From Candidatus Omnitrophota bacterium (GTDB taxonomy: Bacteria > Omnitrophota > Omnitrophia > Omnitrophales > Aquincolibacteriaceae), in NCBI GenBank assembly GCA_022709525.1, contig JAKLIQ010000006.1:2708-66707 (forward strand): a DNA stretch of 64,000 nt. Reading direction: 5' to 3'. Positions 2,967 to 22,483 of the stretch are shown here, piece by piece. Position 1 is the stretch's first letter. Every line of letters begins with the position of its first letter. The position numbers and the translations under genes were made by a program. The notes beneath the pieces are model-generated. The model saw only the letters and a list, made by a program, of their open reading frames with translations. It was not told the DNA's origin and did not search any database.

Positions 2967-3221
2967 GGCGTTCCTCCGTTGGCAAGGATATATATAACGC
3001 AGAACCTGTTTAAAATCAACAAGTTATGCCTATTTTTTCATCCAGAAGCTCTATTTTCTTATATAGCAGAAAATAGCAATATTATCTAATAAACCGCTTC
3101 TGGGAAATATATTGAGCATGGGTTGTTAAATACTTTTTCAACCCCTTGAAATTTGAGAAACTTGTGTTACCTTTCCCATGAGTTTTCTCAATTCCAGGTT
3201 CCGAAAGGGCAAGATCAACGC
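2967..3221. promoter_or_regulatory. AT-rich divergent promoter region between the 703-aa paralogue (-) and giant gene 1 (+). Contains the GTGTTACCTTT motif (3164-3174) also found upstream of giant gene 2.
   Basis: About 35% GC against about 55% for the flanks. Small inverted repeat ctattttcttatatagcagaaaatag. Motif is shared with 36021-36031. Confidence 0.4.
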
Positions 3222-9200: not shown

Positions 9201-12200
9201 CTTCAGGGTTTTGAGGAAACGGATCTTCGCGACGCAAAGGTTTTGGTCAAGAAAAGATCTGACGGAATGGTTTACAATGTCACGCTTCCTTCCGAATTTT
9301 CGCAGCCCTTTGACGCTTTAGACACGCTTCTTAAAGAGATCGAGATATTAGAAGTTTCCCAGATCAGCCACATCGAAGTTGAAAGCCGCGCGTACATCCT
9401 GAAACACTTACTTGCCATAGCCCGGGGGTATGACCAGGAAGCCGCCCAAAAGGCCGGTGCGTTGCTCCGAAGACTCAATAAGCCCCATTCAGCCGCCGCC
9501 GCGATGGAAGAAGCCAAAAAACTTATTTCATCGTCTCGATCCGAAGCAAGAGCCGCCGGAACCGAAGAGAATCCCGCTTTTGAAAAGATCAGAAAGGCCG
9601 TCGTGGAGCTTGCTTTCGAATTGGCCCAAAAGCCGTGGTACAAGGTCCCCAAGGCCGGAGAAGATTTTGACGCGATGGTCAGGATCTTGTCGGAGCACAA
9701 CCAGAAAAGGATCCTCGGGATCGTCGCCTCAAGGATCGAACAATTCGCCGGCGAGATCAGAAGGTCCATGAAAGACGGTTCCACCTGGAAAATGCTCCGA
9801 AGCCGCTATGAGACGGCGCTTGACGCGTCGCGGAAGGTTTCCGGGGCCCCGTCCTCTCTTGAGGAACTTATCACGGAAATGCCTTTTGTTTTTGTGGACC
9901 GTATCGTCCAATTCGGGAAGGCACAAAGGCCTCTCGAAGAAAGATTGGCGCAGGCCGTAGAAGCGCTTGCTGAGATCCAGCGGGGTTCTTACGGATTGGA
10001 GAACGCAAAGACGGCGCATGAGCTCGAAACCAGACTCAGCCGCCGCGGCAGCGAGAGATTTATGGATGTCCTGGAAAGCGCGGAAGATTTCTCTCGCGCC
10101 GTCTTATCCCAGCGCTCCGAAGTCCGCGACAACACCAATACCATTGACGGCTATACGGTCGTCAGCCGCCAACTTGAAGCCGGCCTTGACCGCAGCATTC
10201 TTGAAGCTCTTAACAAAAAACTAAGCCGCCGGTTCCCTAATCTGGGGCATATGATCCGTCGTTATGTGGGGCTTGTCGCCGAAACAACGCTGACGGGCGG
10301 GTTGGGCGCGTTGATGCATGACCTTTTTCCGGCATGGGGGAAGAATTTTGGCTCCCAGGAAAAACGCGAAAAGGACCTTGTGGCGATCAATGTTGTTTAT
10401 GAAAGCATCAAAGGGCAGCGGTATGCGAAGTATTTGCCGGCGGAGATCCAGGAGGGAAGAAAAACGCTCGGGGATTACCTGCGCGGCGTTCTCAAATCCG
10501 ATAAAAGTCTCAGTCTTTCTTTTGAGCTCGAAATAGGGGACGATTTTAGAAGGAAGGCCGCCGACGAAGAGCGTTTTGCCGCCTCGTATGGCAGCGCCGA
10601 ATACCGTGTTTTCGCCCATAAAGCCAAACAGATCATCGGACAAAAGATCTATGTGGAGGTCTATCCGACCGAAACGCATTTTGGCCGTGTTCCCAACTAC
10701 TATGTGGACGCCTATTTTATTGACAACGAAGGCGAAAAAATCAGCATTTTTGACGAGGTCTATCCCGACGCGCCGCATGGGCACCCTAATTTGTGGCGCG
10801 ATGTCCATATGGCCGTTTACAGTTTGGCAAGCCAGCATCTCCTGGAAAAGCTTCGCAGGAAAGGCGTTGTTAAGAGCAAATTCCTTTTTGTGGATAACGA
10901 AGTTTTTGTCAGCACGCCCACGCCCCTTTTCCCCGACGCGATCCATCATCACGTCAACCACACGGTTTTCCGTCCCGGGCTTTACATGCCGGATGAAGCT
11001 TCCTATGAAATGCTCGGATTCCCGGAGGTGCAGCGCAAATACATCGTCAAGGACGGGAAGATCAACATCATTGATGCCGTCGGGATCTCTTCCCATCTGA
11101 TCACCGGGGTCGCCTTGTATGAACACACACCGGTCCTGGCCAAAGACATCATGGCGGCCCATGTCCATAAACTCGAAAGTTACAACAAAGAAGGCGTCCG
11201 CAACACCAACGGGGTTTATCTCGAACAGTGGCAATCGCCCCTTTTGACGGATCTGATCAGCCAGTACAAAGCAAAGATCGGCTTGGAGCCGGAGGATTCC
11301 AACCAGGCGTTCTATCGAGAGATCCAGAAAACCACCCACGCGAGGATCCTGGAAGAATTCGAAGAGAAAGCGGAATTCATCAAGGCGGTCCATGCGGCCG
11401 AACTCCTGCTTTGGCTTAAGGAAGACCAGAATTATTCTCTTTGGTTCGATGAGATGCTCGAAGCGTTTCAGGGCCAGCGCGGCGTTGCGGGCGGGGAATG
11501 GCATCTTGATATCGCTGACGCGGGGAAATTCGTCGAAGGGTTCCGGCAAGCCGTTCAAGATGCCGTCATAGACCCGGCGGGGTGGCAGCACTTCAAGGCG
11601 GGCCCCATGTTCTTCCTGAAAGAACTCCTCTTGCGGGAGCCCATCATTTCCAATGTCCGTCGACAGGTTTCTTATAAAGGGCCGGATAAATGGCTTGAGA
11701 TCTTAAGAAAACTGCAGCGCGATCCTCACGCCTTGGCTCAGTTCAAAGAAAATGCTCCCCGCGTTATTCTGGGCGGACGCGAATTTGGCGAAGAGGCGCA
11801 CGGCATGTTTTTAGAGATCCAAGGCCTCATCAGAGCCCTTGGGTTGCAAGACCGTTTCGCGACCGTCGACGACTACAATAACTACATTGCCCCGATCATT
11901 TTCCAGGGCGTTTCCGGCTCCGTGATGCTTTCCGACGAATTCCTGGAAGCTTCCGCGACCAGCATGATGAAGGCGATTGCGAACGGGGCGGCTCTGATCG
12001 GGGTTTGGGGCGGAGCGGATCCCGAGATCTTCACGATCGTTGATCATAAAACAAAACGCGAGCTGGATGTTTTTAAAGACCATGTCACCCATGACGAACT
12101 CGTTAAAAATCTAAGAACCGGCGCATGGAAGATCACGAACGGTTTTCTGATCGAATATAGCTCTCAAGAGAACAGCACGCAGCCGGGAGGGGGAAGGCGT

Positions 12201-15200
12201 CCGTCCGCCGATTCGCTTCTTCGCGCTCTTTTAGACCTGAACGAGCAATACCAGGATCCGGAAGCGAGGCGCCGGCTTCAATTCAATACGCTCGCATCTT
12301 CTTTAAAGGTCGATATGGCCGAAGGGCAAGCGCTGGCCCACAAAATGTTGTGGGAAGAGGCGATCAGGATCCTTCAGGAAGAGGACAAGGTTTTTGAAGG
12401 GCTGAAGATCTCCCAAGAGGACTCGGAGGCCCTTCTTTCCCGCTCGATCCGCGGCCAAGGTATTGTGGATTTTATCGAGGAATTCCGTTATCTGCGCATG
12501 AAGGGCCGTGAAAGTTACGACCGGGTCGCTTTTTACGCGACACAGGGGCTTCAAGGGAGCATTTTTGGTTTTCTCAATGAATTTTTTAAAGATTTTGACC
12601 ACACGCTCGAACCTGTCATCCGCAAGATCCATGAACTTTCCGTTCGCGCCGAAACCACGACCAACCTTCAGGAGAAAGTCATCGCCAATCTGGAAGCTCT
12701 GGAGATCGTGGAGCGGCTCACGGTGGAAGTTTCCGTCGCTCTTTTTGAGCATTATGTGCTTTCCGGGGATAAGGCGCTCGAACCGTATCTTGCCAAGCCG
12801 ATCATTCGCGAGAATCTGGCCCGCTATTTCGATGAACACGCAGTCGCGCTTGAATCGATCGCTAAAAAGATCCCGGGTTATACCGTTTCAATAGGCGATA
12901 AAAATTACCTCGTGGCACTAAATCTCGGCGAATTCAGTTACGTTGGCCCTTCGGGAGAAAAAGCGCGGGGCGATTTTTACGGCGAAGAAGGCATTAAGGC
13001 CCTTATTGGGGAAGAAGCGGCCAAAAACGATGCGAGCATTTTCCAGCTTGTGGATGCGATCACAGATCAGCGTTACGGCACTTATCCCGTCTGGAAGATG
13101 ATGGAAAGATTTCCGATCGGCGTGCCTTATCCCGGGGTTCAAGTTCTTCGCGTCGAAGATACAGGCCAGCAGTCGGAAGAAAAAGAAACAAGGCTTCGCA
13201 ACGACATTCTGCATTATCTCGAAGCCCTGGCCAACAATCGCCTGGTGAGCGATGGAAAACCGATCACTCAGTTGCTGCTCCAGAAGATCCAGACGGTTGT
13301 GGAGGATCCGGCCAAGCTTTCCAAAATGCTCAAGGTCGTGGCTAACCTCTCTCGCGAAGAGGCCATTGTCAAGTTTACCCGGGGCGGCGTTCCCGCAGTC
13401 ATGGCTTTTATCGCTATTTTGTCGCCGGAACTGCTTGAAGATGTCAAACATTGGAATCCCGATGTTTATAAAAAACTAAATGCGGTGATCCAAGATCCCG
13501 CGTTTGAAAAGAACTTCAAAGAAGGGAAGATCTGGTTCCATAAGGTGGACCGCGACAGCGCCCTTGTCATTTCAAGGAACCTGCCCGGACAGGATATCCC
13601 GCCCGTGATCGTCCCGATCCATTTCCCGGACAGGCCTTACCGCGCCGATGACGGAAAAGCCTGGTTCAGGTTGCTTGATGTGCGGAATTTAGGCGTTGAG
13701 AACTCTGACAAGATCGAATATCAAGTTTATGACGCCATCCTTCAAAAGGCTTATGAGCCGAAAACCGGCGCCAAGCTTCATAGCGAAAAATGGCATTTAG
13801 GCGTTCCCGTTGAGGGCGCGGGGTACCGGTTTCAAATCCTACAGGTCCAACTCGTCAGCGCCGCCCGTTCGGAAACCCGCGGAGTAAGCAATGAAGAAAC
13901 CGAGGAATGGACAAAACATATCAATGACTGGATTAAGCATACCCCTGAAAAAGTACTTATTTTGGGGCTGGGGTTTGTGGGTCTTACAAAGCTTGTACTC
14001 GGAGTGACGGATCATGGATGGGATGCTGTCGGCCTGGAAATCGTTCCCTCCAAAGCGAACATGATCTCGCAAGGCGGAATGCCTTTTTTTGCGGACATGA
14101 TGGAGCCGGAGTATGATAAGGAAGGGAAAATGAAAGATCCAGGCCTGCTTCAAACCGCCATCGAAAGCGGAAGATTTCATGTTACCTCAAGCTACGACGA
14201 AGCTCTGAAAGACCCCGAGAGAGACATTATTTTTCTCGCCGTTCAAACCCCTCAAAGCAACGATGGACGGGCGGATACATTTTATCTTGAATACGCCGTG
14301 CGAGAAGTCGCGCGAAGGACTTTCAGTTATCCCAGAATCATTGTAGGGAAAAGTACGGCACCTCCCAAAACTACCGTGGAAAAACTCAGAATCTCTGTAG
14401 AGGAAGCTCGCGCAGAGAGAATGCAGGAAGTTTTCATCAAACAGCTTCATGACGCATCAATGCAGACAGAAAGATCCGGGGACGAGGCAATCTTCAAATT
14501 AGTACAAGGCTTTCTTTCGGAACAGCTTATAAAACAAAAAATGGTTTTAGATTCCGAAAAATCTTACCTGGAAGCAGTAAGCCGGGAAGACTGGGCGGGC
14601 GACGTCAGACGAACAGAAAAAAAATTAAGAACAATTCATAGGGATAATCCTGAAAATATTAAGACGACCCTTGATTTACTTCGCGAGACAATCGGAGAGG
14701 GGAAATTTAATTCTCTTTTCAACAGCAAGGAAATTTTAGACCAAACAATCCCCATTGAATTTGCTTGGGAACCGGAATTTTTACGTGAAGGAAAAGAGGT
14801 CGTCGACGATCGTGGAGAAGCCGGGCGCATAGTGATCGGAGCCGAAAACCTTAAGGCGGCGCAAAAGGTCAAAGCCCTCTACGAACATTATAACCCCAAT
14901 CTGAATCCCCCTCGTCAGCAAGTTCCTATTGTTATCACAGATCTTGCAAGCGCTCAAACCGTCAAGTATGCCGCTAATACTTACCGCGCGATAAAAATAT
15001 CTTTCATTAATTATATCGGCTGGCTTTGTCAGGTGATGGGTTACGATGTGAATAAGATAGCAGATATTATAGGAATAGAAGGCAATGTTCGAAGGGCGTT
15101 TTTAAATGCAAGTCTTGGTTTTGGCGGATCGTGTTTTCCTAAAGATTTGGCGGCTTTTGTTAAATTATGTAGGGAGCTTGGCCTTTTACCCAATTTGGTA

Positions 15201-18200
15201 TTAGACGCTCTTGCGGTCAATGAAGTTCAGATAAGGAGGTTCGTGAATTTAATTGTCAAACAATTAGACGGCGTCAAAGATAAAACCATTGTTGTGCTTG
15301 GCGGTGCTTTTAAACCCGAAACGAGCGATACGCGAGATTCCAGAGCCGTTCGCGTCATGCAGGATCTGTTGCAAAAAGGAGCCAAGATCAGGGTTGTAGA
15401 TCCTAAAGCTATACCGGAGCTTCAAAGAATGTTTAAGGCGTATCCCCCCGGAGTCATTGAATACTTCGAGAATTTAGATGATTTTGAAAACGTCTTTAAA
15501 GAAGCAGACGGCATTGTACTCGCTACAGAGTGGGAAATATTTAGAGATAAAAGAATAGATCCTAAAAATGGAAAAATGGATTTTGAAAAAATAGCGGCAC
15601 TTTTTACTCATAGACAGTCACTTCCTCATATTTTTGACGGCCGAAACTTATTTGAAAGAAAAGCAGTTAAAGAATTTGGCTTTTCGTATATTGATATTGG
15701 ACGCGCCGAATTACTTAAATCAGACAAAGAACATGTCGCATTTGCAAAACAAGTCAAAGAAGTTTTTCTGGCAGGGAGAGTTTCTCATATCAATGATGTC
15801 GCAGAACTTGCAGAGAAAACCGGAGCCAACGCCTTGGATATCCGAAAAGGATTTGGGTTAGATCCCGTCGTCGGAGAGAGCTATTTAGATCCCGGCATTG
15901 GTTGGGGCGGTCATGACCTTGTGAATTCGCTCCGAGCTCTTGAGAAGCAATCTTGGGATAATATTAAAGATTTGTTGGATGAATATCGCGAAGCCAGGAA
16001 AGATTTTATGAAGCAGTTTGGTTTTAGCGAAAATGAGTTTCCTGATGACGAAAACAGAGTTCCTTTCGTAACAGCTAGCCGCGAAATCAACAAAAAGCAG
16101 ATCGGACTTTATTTAAATAAGGTCAAAACTATTTTAGGCCCTGATCTTAACGGAAAGGACATAACGCTCATCGGTTTGGCCTATAAGATCGGCACTTATT
16201 CTCTCGAAGAATCGCCTTCTATTCATCTCATCGAGGCTCTTTTGCAAGAAGGGGCGATCGTTCATATTGCGGATGAAAATCTTGCTGCTACCGCCAATAC
16301 GAAGGATTATTTTAGCAGATTTCAACACGGAAAATTCGTAGAAAATATTCGCCTTTATAACAATCTTTCCGACGCAATTGTCAATGGGAAGGATTTGCAA
16401 GTTTTAGTGAATCTTTCAGAACGCTACTCTGAAGAATCAGAATGGGCAAAACTCGGATTAAAGAAAGTTTTAGACGCCAGACATTTTTTTAATGATCCGG
16501 TTTCTCTTAAAAAGACGGGTATCAGTTATTTTGCTTTAGGGATACCCGAGGTGAGTTTAGCTGAGGAAGAAGTGTTGAGGCAAAGGGAAATGGAAAGTCG
16601 CGCTGTTCTGAGCCAAATGCAAAAAGCGATTGTCTTTTATAAAGACAAAGTTATGATCGAAGAAAGGGAAGATGAAACATATAAAGTTACCGCATTTGTA
16701 AAAATAGAGGATTCCTGGCTACAAAGAGCCGATTTTTATATTTTTTATGGACCTTATCCCCATGAGCGTCAAACTTTTGATTGGTATGCCCAAGAAGTTT
16801 TGGGCGGGAACATTCGAAAGATAGAACAAACACCCGATTTTTATCAGATCAAACTTATTATCTCACCTAAGAACAATTTTCCAGCTGTTGAGGGGAGGTA
16901 CGGCCTTACCCTTTTTGCCGTTCCTAAAACCATGGCAGAAACGGATCCGGGTTTTCGAAAAGTTCGGTTATGGGCCGCTAAGCCTTTTGACGACACTCCC
17001 TTTATCGTACGTCGTACCGAGCGTTCGGAGCTGCGCAGTCCCGTGGAGGATTTCAGGGCGGAGATCGAAGCGGGCAAAGTCACATTCATCATGTTCAAAG
17101 AAGACGCAGTGAGGGGCCGGAACGAAGAGGGATTGATGGTTCCTCAAATGCTCGAGCGGCTTAGAGACCACGGGTTTGAATTGGTGTATCTTGGCGCTCA
17201 GACCGAATTTACTCAGGAACAGGCCCGGGAGTTTTACGCGGTGCATCAGGGCAAGTGGTTTTATGAACCGTTGGTCCAATACATTACTTCAGGGCCCGCT
17301 ATCCCCGCGTTGGTACGGTATCATGGAGAAGGCCCGGCGGTTCAGGCGATCCGCAGCATTCTGCCGTCGTTGCGCCAGGAGTTCGGGATCGAGAAGGGGG
17401 ATCCGGAGCTCAAAAAAGTTGAACGCAACAAGATCCACGCTTCCGATTCACCCGAGAACGTGTTCTATGAAGGCGCGATCGCTTTCCGCTCCGAGCTCCG
17501 GACGCTGGATGTCGAGGCGCTCGTTGCAACGATCGCCGAACCGGTCTCCGCGATCGATCTTTTCAAGAAAATAGGGCAAAATTCCGCCTTAAGGCAGATC
17601 CGCGCTCTGAAAGAACAAATCATCAAGGCATCTTCCGAGTTCAATCAATCCAAACGCCAGGCCGAAGAAGTCCAGGAGATCGGCGATCTGGGGCTCAAGA
17701 TCGCAAAGCTTCTTTCCCAGGAAAATTATTCTCCCGAAAAGACCCAAGGGATCCTTCAAAAGGCGGTTTCAGAACTTTCTGAGGCGTTGGGGCTTATTCT
17801 TAGATTGCTGACTTACGCGGCAACGGCTAACACCAAAAGTATCCAGCCGTCGGTTTCCGTTGAAGCTCAAAAAATGGTCAAGAAGATCGAAGCGGCGATG
17901 GAGCGGCCTGCGCGCGAAAAGAAAGCTACGGAAACGGCGTCTCCCCGTTCCGAACTGCGGAACGTCGCGGCGCTGATCGCGACAGGAGTTGAGGTCAGGA
18001 CGCCCGAGGAATTCTTCCGGCGCAATCTCGAACAGGGCGGCGGCCATGAACAGGGCGTCCGGAGCGTTACGGAAAAGGTCATGGATGGGATCTATTCGCT
18101 TCTGGCTCATAGCTTTGATGCCGCAAAAGTCATTTCCTCCGCTTTCTTTCCGGAAGCTTATGCTCAAGAGATGTTAACCATGGCTTCCAAGCCCGAAATG

Positions 18201-18698
18201 TTCCTCACAAAGATGCGGTTTGCCGCCGCCAAGGCCGCGCTCGGCATTAAAACATTCAGCGCCGGCGATGTGCTTGTGATCGGGAGGGGATTTGCCCTCG
18301 AGCAGGGCGCGATCGCCGCAGTGCGGACGGTCTTTGGCGATATACCCGTTTTAATTTACACAGATCAAGCGGAGGACGTCGGCTTCCTCGAACAACTCAA
18401 TGTCCAGCTTGCCCAAGCCCATCGGCCGCCAGTCCTGGTGGCTCGGAATCCGGATGAAGCGAGAAAACTCCTGGACGAGGAAGCCGCACGGCTCCGCCAA
18501 GCAGGCGTTAGTTCGATCCATTTTAAGGCCATGGTCTACGAAGCGGAGACCCTGCCTGAAGCTCTCCGGAAGCAGCTTTCCGATGTGACGGTCGTGACAT
18601 CCCGCATGTTCAAGCATTTCCTCAATCTTGCCGGCTCCCGCATTGCCGCGCTGGCGCAGGAAGTCCAGGTCAAGTTCGCCTTCGCGCGGTCGGCATAA
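3222..18698 (+). CDS. Giant multidomain protein 1 (about 5,160 aa; the ORF is open from TTG 3153). Order: N-terminal signal/anchor, TraB/Tiki-like domain, REC, TM, CBM-like beta-rich region, 2 TM, GT35 alpha-glucan phosphorylase, UDP-glucose 6-dehydrogenase, nucleoside-diphosphate kinase, shared C-terminal domain.
   Basis: Single uninterrupted 15.5-kb ORF. The first ATG (MDCLKNLRRFLAGIVAFTFFATN...) is followed by a hydrophobic segment. Domain motifs are listed in the separate features. Confidence 0.85.
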   Translation: MDCLKNLRRFLAGIVAFTFFATNTLTPTPSAYAANVESPSFVSSFKIPAEFGKVTDIFLGTRDSFLGTRSTKNSNESRVLIHIQEAHANYDAQKNIRNILEYLSQNYGIKLVLLEGAGNKLQPELFRFFPQDAELQQAVNDKLMEIGELNGAEVFMIENTGLGARPLGLDKTRNKNESLVPSDESRSESVAAFGVENTAAYVKNLASYREVFEGRKIADDFLGAFYTRWQRSADLSMNKSLREFLGRETAFEEDRVPLQDWLESLKKTASRELELDLDNVRVQNDWPVLVRYFRLKQIAPKINAAKARQEKEVFLQDLKARRIPSELLQEITKLLEHKKDGDLPPYKTRFAFEKLMDLLPTDYSFEQYPNFKLHLQQLILLSELQSDQLQEEIAKLTEKLTVRLTQTENDKQLVAVLHDYRLVKKLFQLELNRGEYQQLLSRNVSPANIIKGLGTSSSGLGNPGKTRSESRMTRLELLYGTAIRFYEGAIEREHWMMQKALERMRERKQAKAVLITGGFHTDGFREKILAGGSSYIGITPRIGEITADSQKNYIQTLLGLNGTSASHLGTRKNEEQKQVPSPESRVPVAVSDIAATPRSDIRLMAETGALDHSLSRIEAASIDIVASTRPENRETYQAQLTQGIQTIKDEVFSGPTSTVRAEMRRAIRVEIPEQVNNALNLEQYLRSLLGKAEYGTQNVTLEAIAAGEWRIVLVTQKGETIPTSNMALASSILSEKGYHNGIRDLQAIEFHPRSEMRERILLVDDSESDRALFRVILESKKYEVVVVESAEEALEEYARAKKEGKPFAAVVSDWNMPKMKGDELARRITDVPFILQSSNILEDGTAENPAEQKILDELAALNPFFRTHSKNELGFLAEKLAGLIFAAKPPVLSFLEMHSAFTAIAKEAAGNDDLVKFINDKWEPFLTTGPLTKTKEKPLKTGQDWQQYFLKLGRLNHDPDIAAEAYRRFQAMVKKNTGKELPPLREGPRQRSEIRTTAKKAADAKRTIKNIADYVRPEQGQKKGIGKITIPYYKGGVEISYRFERLKEKKKEIIEVFKNLIAALELEAEEEPEIGRHFEEGMSHQDLVGVFRYDLEQNHIFMLLAWLKALGFLDLSPTQQALLEKMKETKSADKIKLYPRILNIDLKVLKPEVEKSSVTREAEEEDLEPDANDLEGEDAEARAEVRASQPAGKTGFGIFYRFKLALAIGIIGLWSAIMARAQTVFPGKPYLEHYAGLSGSGSIAQYSSAHFKWNFRIWNPGYSLAVYNFGTTAQGPQNLSGYTSFSWDVRSYINNTTGHQGVFRVEFKDTDGDIASKTVSGIYSNYQTVTITLAELLASNPAYNPQNTKEIVWVADSNAYMPDDYEGWAEFKTGGLFFTTNISPNASYTLYDTTELPEGTEGAVDPVTVYPVGASVTASNQDHGIAFTYNTGGQTWAGAGMAFDDFGTVPVGTGDLSGFSNLVFGIKATGTTQLKMEIVDSAENKEYVYLNGMNAGYQTWVIPMSFFAGIDLENVKVIYFIVEGAGKSGTVSINHIPETIDITGVRRQQNNDVVTFSSISGLTYRVDQSAAGLVSPNWQTGATTRALGPSATITNSTGSSSNTVVTRVIYNRSEAREEKTPAYKIKSEEVSVYDPSSPKSEPYAVAMDLVEEVRISETRTVYFKKAAFEEAYEIYLKGVPNALGLLKEGVRTRIGDLPFRFIAREGKLIILAEKPGIVVMKKIPQTEAAIAKKTPLAAKAPLRIKKSELTKIQGEGRSRSEARLDIEKEMFKSFSELSSDLRVKLKTEWSRFRRFGGNSLEKALREDNEAGVLTLLEYYWEFVGEKIVPPDVLSGKVSMVALSLTGACVMGLVGLTEIPVHALLINLSIWSFIAASGVFAVSLAGSLIGNRMKHSELARVDHLIKLMRELMVRRNHLPLSTLEEKTLSGASSGAPVEAVYRPPRMIQFSEPFVEGERPGKRPPEVEPPARAELRGFGFDVPDWAVGSASNYLKLQGFEETDLRDAKVLVKKRSDGMVYNVTLPSEFSQPFDALDTLLKEIEILEVSQISHIEVESRAYILKHLLAIARGYDQEAAQKAGALLRRLNKPHSAAAAMEEAKKLISSSRSEARAAGTEENPAFEKIRKAVVELAFELAQKPWYKVPKAGEDFDAMVRILSEHNQKRILGIVASRIEQFAGEIRRSMKDGSTWKMLRSRYETALDASRKVSGAPSSLEELITEMPFVFVDRIVQFGKAQRPLEERLAQAVEALAEIQRGSYGLENAKTAHELETRLSRRGSERFMDVLESAEDFSRAVLSQRSEVRDNTNTIDGYTVVSRQLEAGLDRSILEALNKKLSRRFPNLGHMIRRYVGLVAETTLTGGLGALMHDLFPAWGKNFGSQEKREKDLVAINVVYESIKGQRYAKYLPAEIQEGRKTLGDYLRGVLKSDKSLSLSFELEIGDDFRRKAADEERFAASYGSAEYRVFAHKAKQIIGQKIYVEVYPTETHFGRVPNYYVDAYFIDNEGEKISIFDEVYPDAPHGHPNLWRDVHMAVYSLASQHLLEKLRRKGVVKSKFLFVDNEVFVSTPTPLFPDAIHHHVNHTVFRPGLYMPDEASYEMLGFPEVQRKYIVKDGKINIIDAVGISSHLITGVALYEHTPVLAKDIMAAHVHKLESYNKEGVRNTNGVYLEQWQSPLLTDLISQYKAKIGLEPEDSNQAFYREIQKTTHARILEEFEEKAEFIKAVHAAELLLWLKEDQNYSLWFDEMLEAFQGQRGVAGGEWHLDIADAGKFVEGFRQAVQDAVIDPAGWQHFKAGPMFFLKELLLREPIISNVRRQVSYKGPDKWLEILRKLQRDPHALAQFKENAPRVILGGREFGEEAHGMFLEIQGLIRALGLQDRFATVDDYNNYIAPIIFQGVSGSVMLSDEFLEASATSMMKAIANGAALIGVWGGADPEIFTIVDHKTKRELDVFKDHVTHDELVKNLRTGAWKITNGFLIEYSSQENSTQPGGGRRPSADSLLRALLDLNEQYQDPEARRRLQFNTLASSLKVDMAEGQALAHKMLWEEAIRILQEEDKVFEGLKISQEDSEALLSRSIRGQGIVDFIEEFRYLRMKGRESYDRVAFYATQGLQGSIFGFLNEFFKDFDHTLEPVIRKIHELSVRAETTTNLQEKVIANLEALEIVERLTVEVSVALFEHYVLSGDKALEPYLAKPIIRENLARYFDEHAVALESIAKKIPGYTVSIGDKNYLVALNLGEFSYVGPSGEKARGDFYGEEGIKALIGEEAAKNDASIFQLVDAITDQRYGTYPVWKMMERFPIGVPYPGVQVLRVEDTGQQSEEKETRLRNDILHYLEALANNRLVSDGKPITQLLLQKIQTVVEDPAKLSKMLKVVANLSREEAIVKFTRGGVPAVMAFIAILSPELLEDVKHWNPDVYKKLNAVIQDPAFEKNFKEGKIWFHKVDRDSALVISRNLPGQDIPPVIVPIHFPDRPYRADDGKAWFRLLDVRNLGVENSDKIEYQVYDAILQKAYEPKTGAKLHSEKWHLGVPVEGAGYRFQILQVQLVSAARSETRGVSNEETEEWTKHINDWIKHTPEKVLILGLGFVGLTKLVLGVTDHGWDAVGLEIVPSKANMISQGGMPFFADMMEPEYDKEGKMKDPGLLQTAIESGRFHVTSSYDEALKDPERDIIFLAVQTPQSNDGRADTFYLEYAVREVARRTFSYPRIIVGKSTAPPKTTVEKLRISVEEARAERMQEVFIKQLHDASMQTERSGDEAIFKLVQGFLSEQLIKQKMVLDSEKSYLEAVSREDWAGDVRRTEKKLRTIHRDNPENIKTTLDLLRETIGEGKFNSLFNSKEILDQTIPIEFAWEPEFLREGKEVVDDRGEAGRIVIGAENLKAAQKVKALYEHYNPNLNPPRQQVPIVITDLASAQTVKYAANTYRAIKISFINYIGWLCQVMGYDVNKIADIIGIEGNVRRAFLNASLGFGGSCFPKDLAAFVKLCRELGLLPNLVLDALAVNEVQIRRFVNLIVKQLDGVKDKTIVVLGGAFKPETSDTRDSRAVRVMQDLLQKGAKIRVVDPKAIPELQRMFKAYPPGVIEYFENLDDFENVFKEADGIVLATEWEIFRDKRIDPKNGKMDFEKIAALFTHRQSLPHIFDGRNLFERKAVKEFGFSYIDIGRAELLKSDKEHVAFAKQVKEVFLAGRVSHINDVAELAEKTGANALDIRKGFGLDPVVGESYLDPGIGWGGHDLVNSLRALEKQSWDNIKDLLDEYREARKDFMKQFGFSENEFPDDENRVPFVTASREINKKQIGLYLNKVKTILGPDLNGKDITLIGLAYKIGTYSLEESPSIHLIEALLQEGAIVHIADENLAATANTKDYFSRFQHGKFVENIRLYNNLSDAIVNGKDLQVLVNLSERYSEESEWAKLGLKKVLDARHFFNDPVSLKKTGISYFALGIPEVSLAEEEVLRQREMESRAVLSQMQKAIVFYKDKVMIEEREDETYKVTAFVKIEDSWLQRADFYIFYGPYPHERQTFDWYAQEVLGGNIRKIEQTPDFYQIKLIISPKNNFPAVEGRYGLTLFAVPKTMAETDPGFRKVRLWAAKPFDDTPFIVRRTERSELRSPVEDFRAEIEAGKVTFIMFKEDAVRGRNEEGLMVPQMLERLRDHGFELVYLGAQTEFTQEQAREFYAVHQGKWFYEPLVQYITSGPAIPALVRYHGEGPAVQAIRSILPSLRQEFGIEKGDPELKKVERNKIHASDSPENVFYEGAIAFRSELRTLDVEALVATIAEPVSAIDLFKKIGQNSALRQIRALKEQIIKASSEFNQSKRQAEEVQEIGDLGLKIAKLLSQENYSPEKTQGILQKAVSELSEALGLILRLLTYAATANTKSIQPSVSVEAQKMVKKIEAAMERPAREKKATETASPRSELRNVAALIATGVEVRTPEEFFRRNLEQGGGHEQGVRSVTEKVMDGIYSLLAHSFDAAKVISSAFFPEAYAQEMLTMASKPEMFLTKMRFAAAKAALGIKTFSAGDVLVIGRGFALEQGAIAAVRTVFGDIPVLIYTDQAEDVGFLEQLNVQLAQAHRPPVLVARNPDEARKLLDEEAARLRQAGVSSIHFKAMVYEAETLPEALRKQLSDVTVVTSRMFKHFLNLAGSRIAALAQEVQVKFAFARSA
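3396..3458. repeat. In-frame GGGACTCG element inside giant 1, encoding ...LGTRDSFLGTRSTKNSNESR.
   Basis: ttagggactcgggactcgttcctagggactcgtagcacaaagaactcaaacgagtcccgcg. Confidence 0.8.
3700..3780. repeat. In-frame GGGACTCG element inside giant 1 (centre in inverted orientation), encoding GLGARPLGLDKTRNKNESLVPSDESR.
   Basis: gggactcggggctcgacccttgggactcgataaaactaggaacaaaaacgagtccctagtccctagtgacgagtcccgc. Confidence 0.8.
4574..4637. repeat. In-frame GGGACTCG element inside giant 1, encoding GLGTSSSGLGNPGKTRSESRMTR.
   Basis: gggactcgggactagttcctcgggactcgggaatccaggaaaaacgaggagcgagtcccgaatgacg. Confidence 0.8.
4905..4982. repeat. In-frame GGGACTCG element inside giant 1 with 4 tandem CGAGTCCC octamers, encoding ...HLGTRKNEEQKQVPSPESRVP.
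   Basis: gggactagcgcctcgcacctcgggactcgtaaaaacgaggaacaaaaacaagtcccgagtcccgagtcccgagtccc. Confidence 0.8.
5494..5860 (+). other. Response-regulator receiver (REC, CheY-like) domain in giant 1.
   Basis: RILLVDDSESDRALFRVILESKKYEVVVVESAEEALEEY...PFAAVVSDWNMPKMKGDELARRI. This fits the DD ... D-x-x-MP-x-M-x-G pattern of REC domains. An RSEMR motif lies immediately upstream. Confidence 0.7.
6803..8050 (+). other. TM helix (6803-6877) followed by a Thr/Gly/Asn/Tyr-rich beta-sandwich-like extracytoplasmic region, possibly a carbohydrate-binding module.
   Basis: FGIFYRFKLALAIGIIGLWSAIMA, then QTWAGAGMAFDDFG...FSNLVFGIKATGTTQLKMEIVD...VKVIYFIVEGAGKSGTVSINHI. Confidence 0.35.
10150..12120 (+). other. 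Glycosyltransferase family 35 alpha-glucan (glycogen/maltodextrin) phosphorylase domain in giant 1.
   Basis: TLTGGLGALMHD (compare GNGGLGRLAAC) at 10292-10327. SDEFLEASATSMMKAIANGAALIGVWGGADPEI (11930-12030) matches the PLP-lysine signature EASGTSNMKFxLNGALTIGTxDGANVE. Confidence 0.7.
13950..16330 (+). other. UDP-glucose/GDP-mannose 6-dehydrogenase family domain in giant 1 (NAD-binding, central and UDP-binding parts, plus a duplicated C-terminal UDP-binding domain). The region is lower in GC than the rest of the gene.
   Basis: KVLILGLGFVGL (GxGxxG), IVGKSTAPPKTT (compare STVPPGTT), GFGGSCFPKDL catalytic Cys at 15118-15150, KTIVVLGGAFKPETSDTRDS. Second copy DITLIGLAYKIGTYSLEESPS. Confidence 0.8.
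17077..17490 (+). other. Nucleoside-diphosphate kinase (NDK) domain in giant 1, bracketed by RSELR motifs.
   Basis: KVTFIMFKEDAV (compare TFIMIKPD), YITSGPAIPALVRYHGEG (compare YMxSGPVVAMVWEG), RNKIHASDSPENV (compare RNIIHGSDSVESA; catalytic His present). Confidence 0.7.
18000..18695 (+). other. C-terminal domain of unknown function shared by both giant proteins.
   Basis: ...SSIHFKAMVYEA...TSRMFKHFLNLAGSRIAALAQEVQVKFAFARSA* in giant 1 against ...RSVHFKAMAGAN...TERTFENFLNIAGVSALVNAMTVQYKATAKSA* in giant 2. Confidence 0.6.
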
Positions 18699-18745
18699 TC
18701 CAAATACCGGGACTGGGTCTGCCTGCCGGCCAGGCAGGGACTCGT
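18699..18745 (+). terminator. GC-rich hairpin immediately after the giant 1 stop. Candidate intrinsic terminator, merged into the repeat complex.
   Basis: gggtctgcctgccggccaggcaggg (ctgcctgcc / ggccaggcag stem). Confidence 0.3.
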
Positions 18746-18882
18746 TCCTCGCCTGGCTCTCATTAATTCTTTATTGGAAGCCAGCGCAGCGCTTTAGTGC
18801 GGGACTTGTTCGGTCTCTCGTTTTTATTTTACGTTTCCCGAGTCCCGAATCCCGTTTTACGCGAATCGGGATTGCGTTATAA
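18705..18882. repeat. Composite array of GGGACTCG-family units and variants (GGGACTTG, CGAGTCCCGAATCCCG).
   Basis: ...cagggactcgttcctcgcctgg...gcgggacttgttcggtctctcgtttttattttacgtttcccgagtcccgaatcccgttttacgcgaatcgggattgcg. Confidence 0.7.
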
Positions 18883-18892
18883 TCCCTCCCTT

Positions 18893-19774
18893 ATGACTAA
18901 CTTTAAAACAATCCCGATTCGGATAGGCCACAGTCCGGATCCTGACGATGCGTTCATGTTCTACGCCCTCGCGCATGAAAAAATTGATATGCGCGGTTTT
19001 AAAGTAGGGCATGTGATCGAAGATATCGAATCCCTCAATCAGCGCGCGCTTAAGGGTGAACTTGACGTGACGGCGGTTTCCTGCCACGCCTATGCTTATC
19101 TTGCGGACCGCTATGCCGTCATGCGTTCAGGAGCAAGCGTGGGGGATAATTATGGGCCGATTCTTGTTGCCCGGGACTCGTCCCTCGGGACTCGTCCCTC
19201 GTTTTCTGGTAAAAAGATAGCCGTACCAGGCAAGTTGACGACAGCGTTTCTTATTTTCCAACTTTTTCTGGATGATGTTTTTAAAAAAACAAGTCGCGAG
19301 TCCCGAGTCCCGAATTTTGTATTCGTTCCATTCGACAAGATCTTTGACGCCGTAAAGAACGGCGACGCGGACTACGGTCTCATCATCCACGAAGGTCAGA
19401 TCACGTATCAAAAACACGGCCTTGAAAAAACGGTGGATCTTGGAGAATGGTGGCATAAAAGAACAAAACTGCCGCTGCCGCTCGGGATCGATGTGATCCG
19501 AAAAGATCTTGGGCAGGAAACCATAAGGTCTTTCGCGGCGCTTTTTAAGGAAAGTATCGAATACGCCTTGAACCACCGGAAAGATGCCTTAGAATACGCA
19601 AGCCGGTTCGGCCGCGGCATTTCCGAAGACCTGAACGACCGGTTTGTCGGGATGTACGTGAACGATCGGACGGTCGATCTCGGCAAGGACGGCGAGGCGG
19701 GCTTCCGGCGGCTTCTAGATGAGGCTTATCGCGCCGGGATCATCCCGGAGAAGGTGAAGCTGGAATTTATATAA
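18893..19774 (+). CDS. mqnD: Menaquinone (futalosine pathway) MqnD/MqnA-family protein, probably 1,4-dihydroxy-6-naphthoate synthase. Carries two in-frame repeat-arm insertions.
   Basis: IRIGHSPDPDDAFMFYAL, GELDVTAVSCHAYAYL, GPILVA, KIAVPGKLTTAFLIF, DYGLIIHEGQITYQKHGLEKTVDLGEWWHKRTKLPLPLGIDVIRKDLG all match the MqnA/MqnD (PBP-like) family. The start is taken at MTNFKT; the track ORF opens at 18797 inside the repeats. Confidence 0.6.
   Translation: MTNFKTIPIRIGHSPDPDDAFMFYALAHEKIDMRGFKVGHVIEDIESLNQRALKGELDVTAVSCHAYAYLADRYAVMRSGASVGDNYGPILVARDSSLGTRPSFSGKKIAVPGKLTTAFLIFQLFLDDVFKKTSRESRVPNFVFVPFDKIFDAVKNGDADYGLIIHEGQITYQKHGLEKTVDLGEWWHKRTKLPLPLGIDVIRKDLGQETIRSFAALFKESIEYALNHRKDALEYASRFGRGISEDLNDRFVGMYVNDRTVDLGKDGEAGFRRLLDEAYRAGIIPEKVKLEFI
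19172..19205. repeat. Solo left arm of a GGGACTCG element (2 units) in frame in mqnD, encoding RDSSLGTRPS.
   Basis: cccgggactcgtccctcgggactcgtccctcg. Confidence 0.75.
19291..19315. repeat. Solo right arm (CGAGTCCC x2) in frame in mqnD, encoding SRESRVP. About 85 bp of native mqnD sequence lies between the two arms.
   Basis: aagtcgcgagtcccgagtcccgaatttt. Confidence 0.75.
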
Positions 19775-19780
19775 TCTAAT

Positions 19781-19859
19781 GGGACTAGGGACTCGGGACT
19801 GGGGACTCGCTTTGGTTCCTCGTTCATTCGAGTCCCGAGGTGCGAGTCCCGAGCAACGA
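19781..19859. repeat. GGGACTCG palindromic element in the intergenic gap before 19867.
   Basis: gggactagggactcgggactggggactcgctttggttcctcgttcattcgagtcccgaggtgcgagtcccgagcaacgag. Confidence 0.85.
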
Positions 19860-19866
19860 GGGTATT

Positions 19867-20466
19867 ATGGCTAACGACGAATTACGCGCTAAAACACAGG
19901 AAATCGCCAAGAAACACAAAGCTTCCTGGATCGAGCTTGGGCAGTATCTTTTCTCGATCTATAAGAACAAGCTTTATAAGGAATGGGGTTACCAGCAGTT
20001 TGAGACCTATTGCCAAAAAGAGCTGAATATCAGGAACACCACCGCTTCCAAGCTTATCCGTTCCTATTCTTTCCTCGAAAAGGAAGAGCCGCGGATCGTA
20101 AAGCCGGACTTCACGGAAGGAGAAACGCCGAAGAAGATCCCGGATTATGAGGCGGTCAATCTCTTAAGACTTGCCAAAAACAACAAGACTATTCCCGCCA
20201 ACGAATTTGCCGAACTCCGGAACGATGTTCTGAACGAGGGGAAGGAACCCAAAGAAGTGCGGGCCGCGGTCAAAAAGATCCTCGAGACCCATGCGCCGAA
20301 AGAAACGCCGGAGATGAAGGACCAGAAACGGGGTTCGATCTTACGCCGGCTGATCGGATTTCTTAATTCGGCCAAAAGCCAACTTGAGGAAGAGGATCTT
20401 GTGCCGGATTATTTACTCAAACAGATCGATACGCTGACGCAGAAACTCGAAGACCAGCTCAACTAA
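19867..20466 (+). CDS. Hypothetical protein (about 200 aa), flanked on both sides by GGGACTCG elements.
   Basis: Start MANDELRAK with GAGGG upstream. The segment ASWIELGQYLFSIYKNKLYKEWGYQQFETYCQKEL might be a DNA-binding/HTH-like region. The rest is a Lys/Glu-rich helix. No confident family assignment. Confidence 0.5.
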   Translation: MANDELRAKTQEIAKKHKASWIELGQYLFSIYKNKLYKEWGYQQFETYCQKELNIRNTTASKLIRSYSFLEKEEPRIVKPDFTEGETPKKIPDYEAVNLLRLAKNNKTIPANEFAELRNDVLNEGKEPKEVRAAVKKILETHAPKETPEMKDQKRGSILRRLIGFLNSAKSQLEEEDLVPDYLLKQIDTLTQKLEDQLN

Positions 20467-20866
20467 GGACGGGACTCGATACTCGTTCCTCGGGACTCGC
20501 TTTGGTTCCTCGTTTTCTCGAGTCCCTAGTCCCCAGCGACGAGTCCCGCTTTGATCGCTTTTTTGCGACCAAAGCTGCTTTTTTAGAGCGCGGCCACTCT
20601 TTCACTTCGCATTCCCGGATAAGCGCGCGCGACCGGTCGCCGCATGTTTCGGAATAAAGCATTTCTACAGGCCTGCGGGTACGGGTATAACGGGACGCTT
20701 TACCGTCTTGATGCATCTTGAAGCGCCGCTCGATATCGTTGGTGATCCCCGTATAAAACGATCCATCGCAGCATTTCAGAATGTAAAGCGACCATGCCTC
20801 CGCGGTTTTCCCAGCGGTTTTTTCTTTTTTAAGACCCGCGAGCATTCGTTTATAGGTGGGATGCAT
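20459..20866 (-). CDS. GIY-YIG nuclease-family protein (UPF0213/YhbQ-like) with a 30-aa repeat-encoded C-terminal extension.
   Basis: WSLYILKCCDGSFYTGITNDIERRFKMHQDGKASRYTRTRRPVEMLYSETCGDRSRALIRECEVKEW. The tail ...RDSSLGTRDSRKRGTKASPEERVSSPVLS comes from the repeat. Confidence 0.65.
   Translation of the reverse strand: MHPTYKRMLAGLKKEKTAGKTAEAWSLYILKCCDGSFYTGITNDIERRFKMHQDGKASRYTRTRRPVEMLYSETCGDRSRALIRECEVKEWPRSKKAALVAKKRSKRDSSLGTRDSRKRGTKASPEERVSSPVLS
20471..20549. repeat. GGGACTCG palindromic element. It overlaps the 3' end of the GIY-YIG gene and encodes its C-terminal tail.
   Basis: gggactcgatactcgttcctcgggactcgctttggttcctcgttttctcgagtccctagtccccagcgacgagtcccgc. Confidence 0.85.
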
Positions 20867-20875
20867 ATCAACAAC

Positions 20876-20952
20876 CGGGACTCGTTCCTCGGGATTCGTA
20901 CCTCAAAAATGAGAAACCAAAACGAATCCCGAGGGGCTAGTCCCGAGTCCCC
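20876..20952. repeat. GGGACTCG-family element (GGGATTCG variant) between GIY-YIG and the SemiSWEET-like gene.
   Basis: cgggactcgttcctcgggattcgtacctcaaaaatgagaaaccaaaacgaatcccgaggggctagtcccgagtcccc. Confidence 0.8.
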
Positions 20953-22352: not shown

Positions 22353-22406
22353 AGGGAAAGAGTATCATGTCAAGGGCGCAGCGCGCAACGCCTGTCTGGT
22401 AAAAAA

Positions 22407-22483
22407 GGACTCGTTGCTCGCCCCTCGGGACTTGTTTCGCTCCTCGTTTTTACGAGTCCCTAGTCCCGAGAAACAAGTCCCGG
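22407..22483. repeat. GGGACTCG-family element in the divergent pepP/tkt intergenic region.
   Basis: aggactcgttgctcgcccctcgggacttgtttcgctcctcgtttttacgagtccctagtcccgagaaacaagtcccgg. Confidence 0.8.

Follow-up and report, generated by a model that had tools for sequence, protein, structure and literature searches.

Heptamer-armed hairpin repeats in a Candidatus Omnitrophota genome and a split form that brackets conserved coding sequence in mqnD

We analyzed a window of 64,000 nt from a Candidatus Omnitrophota metagenome-assembled genome (GCA_022709525.1, contig JAKLIQ010000006.1), in which mqnD, encoding 1,4-dihydroxy-6-naphthoate synthase, contains two short inverted arms separated by 90 nt. 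It is well supported that these are the arms, purine-rich at 5' and pyrimidine-rich at 3', of a heptamer-armed hairpin repeat, which is also present in the window as a compact element, and that the element in mqnD is split, with 90 nt of mostly conserved MqnD coding sequence in place of the 21-nt loop of the compact form. Equally well supported is that the split form was inherited across a clade, was kept almost unchanged at the nucleotide level, and, in other lineages, was renewed at these sites from different heptamer families. The split, in-frame palindromic repeat is real and apparently undescribed; a search of the accessible literature, including a preprint on Omnitrophota giant genes, returned no description of these elements.

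The mqnD open reading frame (ORF; 18893-19774, + strand, 293 aa) was assigned by PF02621 and by matches to the solved MqnD structures 1zbm (E=3e-73) and 2czl (E=3e-57). It runs uninterrupted from the ATG at 18893 to the stop at 19774 with both arms inside, in agreement with the initial annotation, which had described the arms as in frame. Three contigs have this identical protein on record, and a one-off assembly artefact is therefore excluded. The left arm (19173-19200, + strand) consists of four purine-rich heptamers, GGGACTC GTCCCTC GGGACTC GTCCCTC, and encodes RDSSLGTRP in the loop of residues 94-107. The pyrimidine-rich right arm (19291-19312, with its heptamers at 19291-19311, + strand) reads AAGTCGC GAGTCCC GAGTCCC followed by a G, and encodes SRESRVP in the loop of residues 130-140. 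Exact copies of the motif GGGACTCG are found at 19173-19180 and 19187-19194 on the + strand and at 19297-19304 and 19304-19311 on the - strand.

Between the arms lies the 90-nt enclosed segment (19201-19290, + strand), which encodes a conserved strand and helix, KIAVPGKLTTAFLIFQLF. It begins with a T-run, GTTTTCT, and ends with an A-run, AAAAAAAC, corresponding to native K-K-N codons, so that the inverted symmetry goes beyond the heptamers themselves (left, ...CTC G TTTT; right, AAAA C AAG...). In relatives with the same heptamer family, the T-run site after the left arm is GATTTT, representing native D-F codons, and orthologues free of an insert at the right site read GAA AAA AAT (E-K-N) there. 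From these native runs in the relatives it follows that the arms immediately flank a weak inverted repeat of native origin, formed by the T-run and the A-run.

Both 1zbm and 2czl align straight across KIAVPGKLTTAFLIFQL, with gaps solely at the arms (4-5 residues at the left and 10-11 at the right), and in an alignment of 36 Omnitrophota MqnD orthologues the same native middle was seen, again with gaps at the arms. The earlier proposal that two genuine repeat halves surround native MqnD sequence was thus borne out. The corresponding ancestral loops, represented by Poribacteria and distant Omnitrophota, have 13-15 and 9 residues, compared to 17 and 20 in the window; therefore, the left arm (adding about 2-4 codons) mostly replaces the native loop, while the right arm adds about 11, and the arms are not pure insertions. 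In an AlphaFold2 model with a mean predicted local distance difference test score (pLDDT) of 85, the arms fall in loops 94-107 and 130-140, with block-mean pLDDT of 64-70, on either side of strand 108-111 and helix 117-129. Both arms encode low-confidence surface loops.

The motif of the arms builds a family of small hairpin repeats in the window. There are 47 exact copies of GGGACTCG, against 2.56 expected and a maximum of 8 in dinucleotide-preserving shuffles (n=100). Nine heptamer-periodic segments (at least 16/21 matches) were found at a lag of 7, and the seven-base periodicity is specific, because lags 5, 6, and 8-11 gave none. The canonical compact copy is 77 bp long and is made of eleven heptamers, four in the left arm, three in the loop, and four in the right arm. 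Its left units are GGGACTC GGGACTC GTTCCTM GGGACTC, its right units begin with GAGTCCC, and the loop is a conserved, asymmetric stretch of 21 nt (GYTTTGG TTCCTCG TTTTTAC) that occurs in both orientations. Thirteen compact copies of this GGGACTC family are present in the window, together with one of a second family (CAGACCN, 36607-36700); six are intergenic, and eight are in frame within the N-terminal 2 kb of two giant ORFs. The compact copies are 55-77 bp long and heptamer-built, with one to four units per arm and arm gaps of 11-35 nt (mode, 21). No consistent direct repeat indicative of a target-site duplication was found in the flanks of 11 compact copies. In every family and on both strands, the purine-rich strand runs 5' to 3' toward the center of the element. 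The right half of one 77-bp copy, in frame in giant ORF 1 (4905-4981; CAAAAAC AAGTCCC GAGTCCC GAGTCCC on the + strand), closely resembles the right-arm site of mqnD.

The initial annotation had also reported that the arrangement recurs in giant ORF 2 (36049-56841, + strand, 6930 aa), and this was confirmed. The first 2 kb of this ORF hold two wide pairs and three compact elements. The pair originally noticed (37023-37165) has a left arm reading GGGACTC GTTCCTA GGGACTC G (37023-37044, + strand) and, after a gap of 93 nt, a degenerate right arm, GAGCCCC GAGGAGC GAGCTTC GAGTCCC (37138-37165, + strand); GGGACTCG is found here at 37023-37030 and 37037-37044 on the + strand and at 37158-37165 on the - strand. 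The window contains a third pair, which belongs to a different, CTGAG-type heptamer family (36223-36364). Its left arm, GGGACTGAGGTGAAAGAGCTGAGTCGCGAG (36223-36252, + strand), and its right arm, GCCTCAG CGCTCAG TCCTCAG TTCTCAG GGC (36334-36364, + strand), enclose 81 nt encoding the conserved LAERITVPSEIGIIKEI. The second-family compact element in the same ORF (36607-36700, CAGACCN / GGTCTNN) reads CAGACCA GAGACTA CAGACCG ... GGTCTCA AGTCTTA AGTCTTC, and at least three heptamer families therefore coexist inside giant ORF 2 alone. No isolated half-arm was found in any ORF of the window; these hold eight compact elements and three wide pairs.

A characteristic spacing of about 85 bp, as had been suggested, applies only to the three pairs of the window, whose gaps of 81, 90, and 93 nt correspond to 27-31 codons. 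Elsewhere, the arms enclose about 87-132 nt of native sequence or 116-432 nt of other cargo. In the relatives, the mqnD pairs have loops of 90-132 nt, varying with the other content of the left loop, and the giant ORF 2 equivalents in L095 (loci of relatives are designated L0xx, and that of the window WIN) enclose about 87 and about 128 nt. Arm-pair loops of 150 and 191-193 nt in L029 and L081 hold another, nested hairpin repeat. This nested repeat is a second, unrelated hairpin of the TGTCATTCCCGC...GCGGGAATGACA type (L081, 5161-5409; L029, 12421-12620), and a repeat of this type also sits in the mqnD left loop of L038. Two loops of 116 and 130 nt in L051 apparently lie outside long ORFs. In L087 (4462-4955), a 432-nt loop between GGGACTC-family arms holds a complete small gene with its own ribosome-binding site, encoding a four-helix-bundle protein of the 23S_rRNA_IVP type (PF05635, E=6.6e-36). 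It is the sole arm-flanked gene found, and the arrangement has the appearance of an element that is full-length or carries a cargo. We also considered a ruler set by heptamer phase and rejected it, as pair lengths of 139, 143, and 142 in the window and 141-177 in relatives are neither constant nor multiples of 7. We conclude that there is no strict spacing ruler and that the spacing follows tolerated protein loops; in mqnD, it equals the separation of the two loops that tolerate insertions on either side of one strand-helix unit. Native loops may have an upper limit of about 130 nt, which the sample is too small to show.

To follow the two mqnD sites across relatives, we used 80 mqnD loci fetched from species-representative genomes, together with a peptide-level survey of both arm sites in 86 orthologues (P-numbered). 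In a neighbor-joining tree, every mqnD with an insert at the right site fell in one clade, which also included L004, a member without the right-site insert and with mqnD intact. Five relatives (L092, L093, L094, L001, and L008; 71-91% protein identity to the window) have the same family at both sites. Their left arm always has four heptamers, starting 4 or 5 nt past the GPILV valine codon, and the right arm is in the same frame in all six sequences. The arms are not recent events in this genome, since they are shared by relatives at 72-87% protein identity and occupy the same sites across the whole clade. The arms are therefore ancestral within the clade, which the initial annotation had named as an outcome that would speak against its proposal, and not for MqnD as a family.

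Other families occupy the same two mqnD sites in other lineages, namely, GGATGGA, GGGGAAC, GTACGGC, GCGCAAC, and GGAGTTT. In all five checkable mqnD families, GGGACTC included, the polarity of the pair equals that of the family's own compact element; for GGAGTTT, there was no compact reference for comparison. The same turnover was seen in giant ORF 2, where L095 has CCACGAA/CGTGGCC arms at the sites corresponding to 37023/37138 in the window and CAGACTA/GGTCTCC arms at those corresponding to 36223/36334. At the latter pair of sites, L096 has heptamers that resemble arms and belong to a further family, for which a check of polarity was not possible. The compact sites of the window in giant ORF 2, including 37455-37531, also hold other families in orthologues, and the spacer after the mqnD stop holds a compact hairpin in about 21/25 clade loci, drawn from at least eight families, with short remnants only in L005 and L021 and a short hairpin in L004. 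The 7-base unit is thus exchanged, whereas position, architecture, and polarity are retained. Against this turnover elsewhere stands one GTACGGC-family array, CGGTACTCCGTACGGCGTACGGCGTACGGAG, about 10.6 kb downstream of mqnD, which is nearly identical in six lineages (L001, position 19111; L004, 20570; L008, 20605; L013, 20609; L015, 12228; L019, 20609) and lies at a near-equal locus coordinate (20570-20609) in four of them. A third insertion hot spot in MqnD follows NQRAL (window residue ~53), where L006, L022, L051, and many others have complete hairpins, including non-heptamer perfect palindromes such as GTAGGGGCCGTTCGCGAACGGCCCCTAC in L051, adding up to ~70 residues in some orthologues.

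That compact, wide, and intergenic copies all change family without changing position is one of several observations that would suit de novo writing of heptamers, in which a trans-acting templated activity (for example, an enzyme akin to reverse transcriptase or telomerase, or a repair activity triggered by a nuclease) adds family heptamers to facing 3' ends. A compact element would then result from a double-strand break and a pair bracketing host DNA from two opposed nicks, and a change of template would rewrite stems in place. The centerward run of the purine-rich strand on both strands resembles head-to-head telomere fusions, and both the missing target-site duplications and the variation from one to four units per arm fit as well. 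However, the fixed arm layout and the conserved asymmetric 21-nt loop suggest the copying of a master sequence, opposed nicks should mostly leave single-arm products, of which the ORFs contain none, and no candidate enzyme was identified. We regard this explanation as quite improbable. A somewhat less improbable, though still doubtful, idea is that Omnitrophota have a structure-directed "stem rewriting," in which hairpin stems at fixed positions would periodically be overwritten with a new heptamer family by a trans-acting templated activity. This would include stems whose loop is essential coding sequence, and it would be a mode of repeat propagation not known before, different from the cut-and-paste movement of a unit.

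Through this turnover, the two arms of a gene are usually complementary to each other. The predicted left/right duplex energy was -32.5 kcal/mol within genes compared to -25.9 kcal/mol between genes, and the mean number of complementary 6-mers shared by left and right arms was 4.4 within versus 1.7 between genes (permutation p < 1e-4). Two further comparisons were set aside. Concordance by shared 6-mers was 14/24 for left-right and 11/24 for right-intergenic, too close to show coupling alone, and a reverse-complement test at the peptide level was uninformative because of degeneracy (14/86 orthologues above the cross-pair 95th percentile). When the mqnD region was folded as RNA, the minimum-free-energy structure (-48.4 kcal/mol, z = -3.3, equaled by 0/200 shuffles) had the two arms paired with each other around the segment, and the arms also paired in the predicted folds of both giant ORF 2 cases, so that the suggested check for structure around the bracketed segment gave a predicted cross-segment stem in all three.

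Inverted arms around a short intragenic segment also have the anatomy of an invertible element, in which they would serve as recombination sites flipping the 90 nt and switching mqnD off and on; a flip would indeed truncate MqnD. Since the flipped segment has stop codons, it would yield no alternative product, and only the forward orientation was found in 24/24 loci and in three assemblies of the same protein. Moreover, the same arms mostly occur as compact hairpins with 21-nt loops. No invertase is known near the locus, with no search aimed at one made. An inverton is thus extremely unlikely.

The strength of the predicted mqnD stem could instead mean that a long-range RNA or DNA stem is itself selected, for instance for mRNA stabilization, RNase III processing, or ribosome pausing during co-translational folding. 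Such selection could be combined with either model of origin, templating or separate insertion, with the repeat families merely supplying complementary sequence. In line with it, left/right complementarity survives changes of family, and the right arm is conserved far beyond synonymous sites: among the window and its five same-family relatives, its nucleotide identity is 88-96%, compared to 34-51% at fourfold-degenerate sites for all but the closest pair, WIN and L092. The arm must therefore be held by selection at the nucleotide level or by conversion from other copies. Similarly, the hairpin in the spacer after mqnD is identical between WIN and L092, despite 78% identity at fourfold sites. 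Gene conversion by the many other copies could, however, equally conserve the arm, mismatched-family pairs persist in L003, L012, and L013, and L004 keeps mqnD intact without a right arm. No match to Rfam 15 was found at gathering score across the whole window, and the polarity would be left unexplained, because inside-out pairs would pair equally well. We therefore hold a selected stem to be improbable as the explanation of the pairs.

How the bracket arose was inferred from end states. The initial annotation had offered two options, arms that insert independently or a mechanism that brackets host DNA, such as a template switch. The arms do behave as a pair, as judged by polarity, the usual match of family, and cross-segment pairing, while a template switch is not demonstrated. 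Our preferred, though tentative, model, to which we would give slightly less than an even chance, is one of intrastrand templating. According to this model, a compact element would first land in the left loop, a hot spot. A replication strand switch across the native T-run/A-run inverted repeat would then write the arm, copied in inverted orientation, into the tolerated loop that comes next downstream, and the inner half at the left site would subsequently be lost, giving the split form. The arms would pair in single-stranded DNA or mRNA as a long-range stem enclosing the host segment, and the same strand switching would later correct the right arm and keep the pair matched. The spacing of ~27-31 codons would reflect two limits, namely, that the arms lie in residue-tolerant loops and that they are close enough (up to ~130 nt) to pair. 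Templating accounts for the polarity and for the lack of isolated halves, as well as for the extension of symmetry into the native runs and the perfectly symmetric compact variant at 37988-38047.

Hairpins are frequent at the left mqnD site, a hot spot also where the right site is empty, and the right site has a right arm alone in 84/86 orthologues and a left arm alone in none. L006, L009, L015, and L026 combine a full compact element on the left with only a right arm at the right site. P0047 and P0052 have the complete compact element at the right site and a left-only arm at the left, and this is one of several findings that count against the model. No template-switch event was observed. In the four loci with a full left element, the right arm of that element adjoins the native T-run, and a simple switch predicts a left-type arm downstream, which was never seen at the right site. 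The T-run/A-run junction is missing in GCGCAAC-family pairs and in the giant ORF 2 pair at 37023, and the two giant ORF 2 pairs have weak folding z scores (-1.4 and -1.45). The families at the two mqnD sites are mismatched in L003, L012, and L013 and, as judged from peptides, in roughly 12-15/86 orthologues; the two sites can therefore change independently. Finally, in a strict scan of ~1.2 Mb of relatives' flanks, no additional wide pair around native ORF sequence was found except in mqnD.

Several of these findings would be accommodated by two separate full insertions, followed by deletion of the inner halves through slippage between the T/A-runs in the loop of the element and the native T-run after the left site or A-run before the right site, with the pairing as a by-product. 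Bursts of a family would put compact elements in every tolerated loop, both mqnD loops included. The left-full and right-full loci named above would be the intermediates, and the left site would be hot irrespective of the right one. Mismatched families, which on this count affect about 15-30% of orthologues, would follow from independent insertion. Permissive sites do look saturated, with five elements packed into 2 kb of giant ORF 2 and a compact element in most intergenic spacers of the first 23 kb of the window, and the mqnD junctions coincide exactly with native runs, GATTTT and AAAAAAA. However, these microhomology runs are missing in other families and in the giant ORF 2 pairs, and the deletions would require an unexplained bias for retaining the outer halves. 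No inside-out pair was found; the three window pairs and every checkable combination (at least five in mqnD and two in giant ORF 2) have the standard polarity. The ORFs of the window contain no isolated half, and 0/86 orthologues had a full element on both sides of the segment, as the starting state would require. We consider two insertions a serious alternative, somewhat less likely than templating. Separate insertions also explain the combinations of full element and half-arm and the mismatches, and the template switch stays a candidate.

Other candidate explanations of the arm pattern were rejected. Microhomology with the native T/A-runs, tried as a general rule for arm type, fits the GGGACTC-family mqnD pairs and neither the GCGCAAC pairs nor the pair at 37023. 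We found no systematic asymmetry in stop codons or residue types between left- and right-type arms that could give the polarity a cause at the protein level. Inversion, unequal crossing-over, and slippage between two full elements do not yield the split form in one step, and these simple rearrangements were rejected because the essential segment would be deleted or inverted.

An inverted-repeat census of 1.27 Mb of loci and a lag-7 array census gave many heptamer families and a few extra wide pairs, at thresholds that missed both giant ORF 2 pairs. The solo-array class of the lag-7 census was unreliable, as most of its members had a sub-threshold partner candidate and many were degenerate compact elements. 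A metagenome scan for the left-arm pattern GGGACTCGTTCCTMGGGACTCG returned only 11 short loci, the source contig not among them.

We compared the element with known classes of small bacterial repeats. Ogata and colleagues are said to have described, in 2000, the Rickettsia palindromic elements (RPEs), small palindromic repeats in frame in protein-coding genes. RPEs are ~100-150 bp long, fall in families RPE-1 to RPE-8, are inserted whole, and have no tandem-heptamer build; the peptides that they add form surface loops and leave the protein functional, and insertion sites are common to related species. We know of no RPE site that is occupied by unrelated families in different species. The Omnitrophota repeats resemble RPEs, compared here by description, in being palindromic and in frame in ORFs at surface positions, and differ in being heptamer elements of 55-77 bp, in belonging to an unrelated host phylum, and in having halves that bracket host sequence. 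A process like the proposed writing and matching of the right arm is known from quasipalindrome template-switch mutagenesis in Escherichia coli, in which replication perfects an imperfect inverted repeat by using one arm as the template for the other. Known cases fix a few bases across short loops, however, and an arm of 21-28 nt across ~90 nt would be extreme.

Repetitive extragenic palindromic (REP) sequences and their hairpin-forming doublets (REPINs) are short and abundant inverted repeats in genome-specific families, with long vertical persistence and with singlets as remnants (PMC3116915, PMC3733652). REPINs are extragenic, have a GTAG or CGTC tag and a fixed doublet spacing, and are mobilized by REP-associated tyrosine transposases (RAYTs) (PMC3116915, PMC3733652). 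The inverted hairpin doublet with a characteristic spacing (11-35 nt, mode 21) is shared by our elements. In contrast, the inspected copies start with GGGACTC and end with GAGTCCC, with no GTAG or CGTC tag at either end, are built as heptamer arrays, and include eight compact copies and three wide pairs in frame inside ORFs. As they lack the tag and are not extragenic, they fall outside the REP/REPIN definition. No transposase was found among the Pfam matches of seven window ORFs and one L087 protein, with no search aimed at RAYT made.

Bacterial MITEs (miniature inverted-repeat transposable elements), such as Correia and Nezha, have terminal inverted repeats around a short non-coding core, reach high copy numbers, and occasionally insert in frame (PMC10969869). 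Terminal inverted repeats, and arms able to flank a larger cargo such as the L087 PF05635 gene, are points of likeness, although that sole arm-flanked gene is not a known transposase. The tandem-heptamer arms and the split form around native host sequence are differences from MITEs, no cognate transposase is known, and the lack of a target-site duplication places the elements outside the MITE definition. Lastly, the heptamer tandem repeats of cyanobacteria and Beggiatoaceae (short tandemly repeated repetitive sequences [STRR], TAACTGA) are mainly intergenic direct arrays (PMC4679880, PMC4692102). They share with our elements the seven-base tandem unit, unit sequences specific to a lineage, and an unusual abundance in certain bacterial lineages, whereas the units described here form inverted pairs that make hairpins, many of them inside ORFs.

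The remaining compact copies of the window are distributed as follows. Near its start lie an intergenic copy (259-334) and one with a short right arm (783-848). Giant ORF 1 (3153-18698, 5181 aa) holds in-frame copies at 3399-3453, 3701-3777 (77 bp), and 4574-4632, in addition to that at 4905-4981, and in both giant ORFs the repeat insertions all fall within the first ~2 kb. Directly after giant ORF 1 is an intergenic, solo left-arm fragment, GGGACTCGTTCCTCG (18737-18751, + strand), 49 nt 5' of the copy that precedes mqnD (18801-18853), whose left arm is degenerate; an inserted 49-nt sequence may have split this left arm. A further copy fills the spacer after the mqnD stop (19781-19850). Downstream are a canonical 77-bp copy (20471-20547), reading GGGACTC GATACTC GTTCCTC GGGACTC / GCTTTGG TTCCTCG TTTTCTC / GAGTCCC TAGTCCC CAGCGAC GAGTCCC, a copy at 20877-20951, and one with a degenerate left arm at 22406-22481. 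In giant ORF 2, a 77-bp copy (37455-37531) and the symmetric variant mentioned above (37988-38047), with its short loop GTTTTAAAAAC, are both in frame.

Some neighboring features were also noted. An ORF with a GIY-YIG nuclease domain (20462-20866, - strand, 135 aa, PF01541, E=1.5e-16) lies between the complete compact elements at 20471-20547 and 20877-20951 and has the same syntenic place in L094; speculatively, hairpin DNA might be a substrate of its product. The mqnD start codon at 18893 is straddled by a 13-nt inverted repeat, CGAATCGGGATTG (18862-18874) ... CAATCCCGATTCG (18909-18921). The right copy of this repeat is within the conserved TIPIR codons, the unit resembles a GGGATTC variant of the heptamer, and the repeat might occlude the ribosome-binding site or the start codon. 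Long-range inverted repeats that are not made of heptamers occur at 26655-26676/26748-26769 (22 nt, 71-nt loop) and 62131-62144/62243-62256 (14 nt, 98-nt loop). In L094, the giant-gene counterpart upstream of mqnD (6642 aa) has Pfam matches to domains of metabolic enzymes and of RNA polymerase, among them UDPGP, ribose-5-phosphate isomerase, thioredoxin, glycogen phosphorylase, and the RNA polymerase alpha C-terminal domain.

Few features of bacterial genomes are as common, and as little understood, as small palindromic repeats. Those described here are unusual in that the 7-base unit differs between related genomes and between sites of one genome while architecture, polarity, and position are kept, in that many copies are in frame in genes, including that of an essential menaquinone enzyme and giant genes, and in that the hairpin can be split around 27-31 functional codons, recurring at the same sites with different families. 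The arms add peptides with a seven-residue periodicity (GTRDSGL / SPESRVP and analogues) to many Omnitrophota proteins, which will confuse alignments and domain calls. If templating or rewriting of arms is the correct explanation, repeats would propagate without a unit moving from place to place. If saturating insertion and trimming is correct instead, the elements would provide a natural map of insertion-tolerant protein sites, and repeats would strongly shape proteins in this uncultured phylum.

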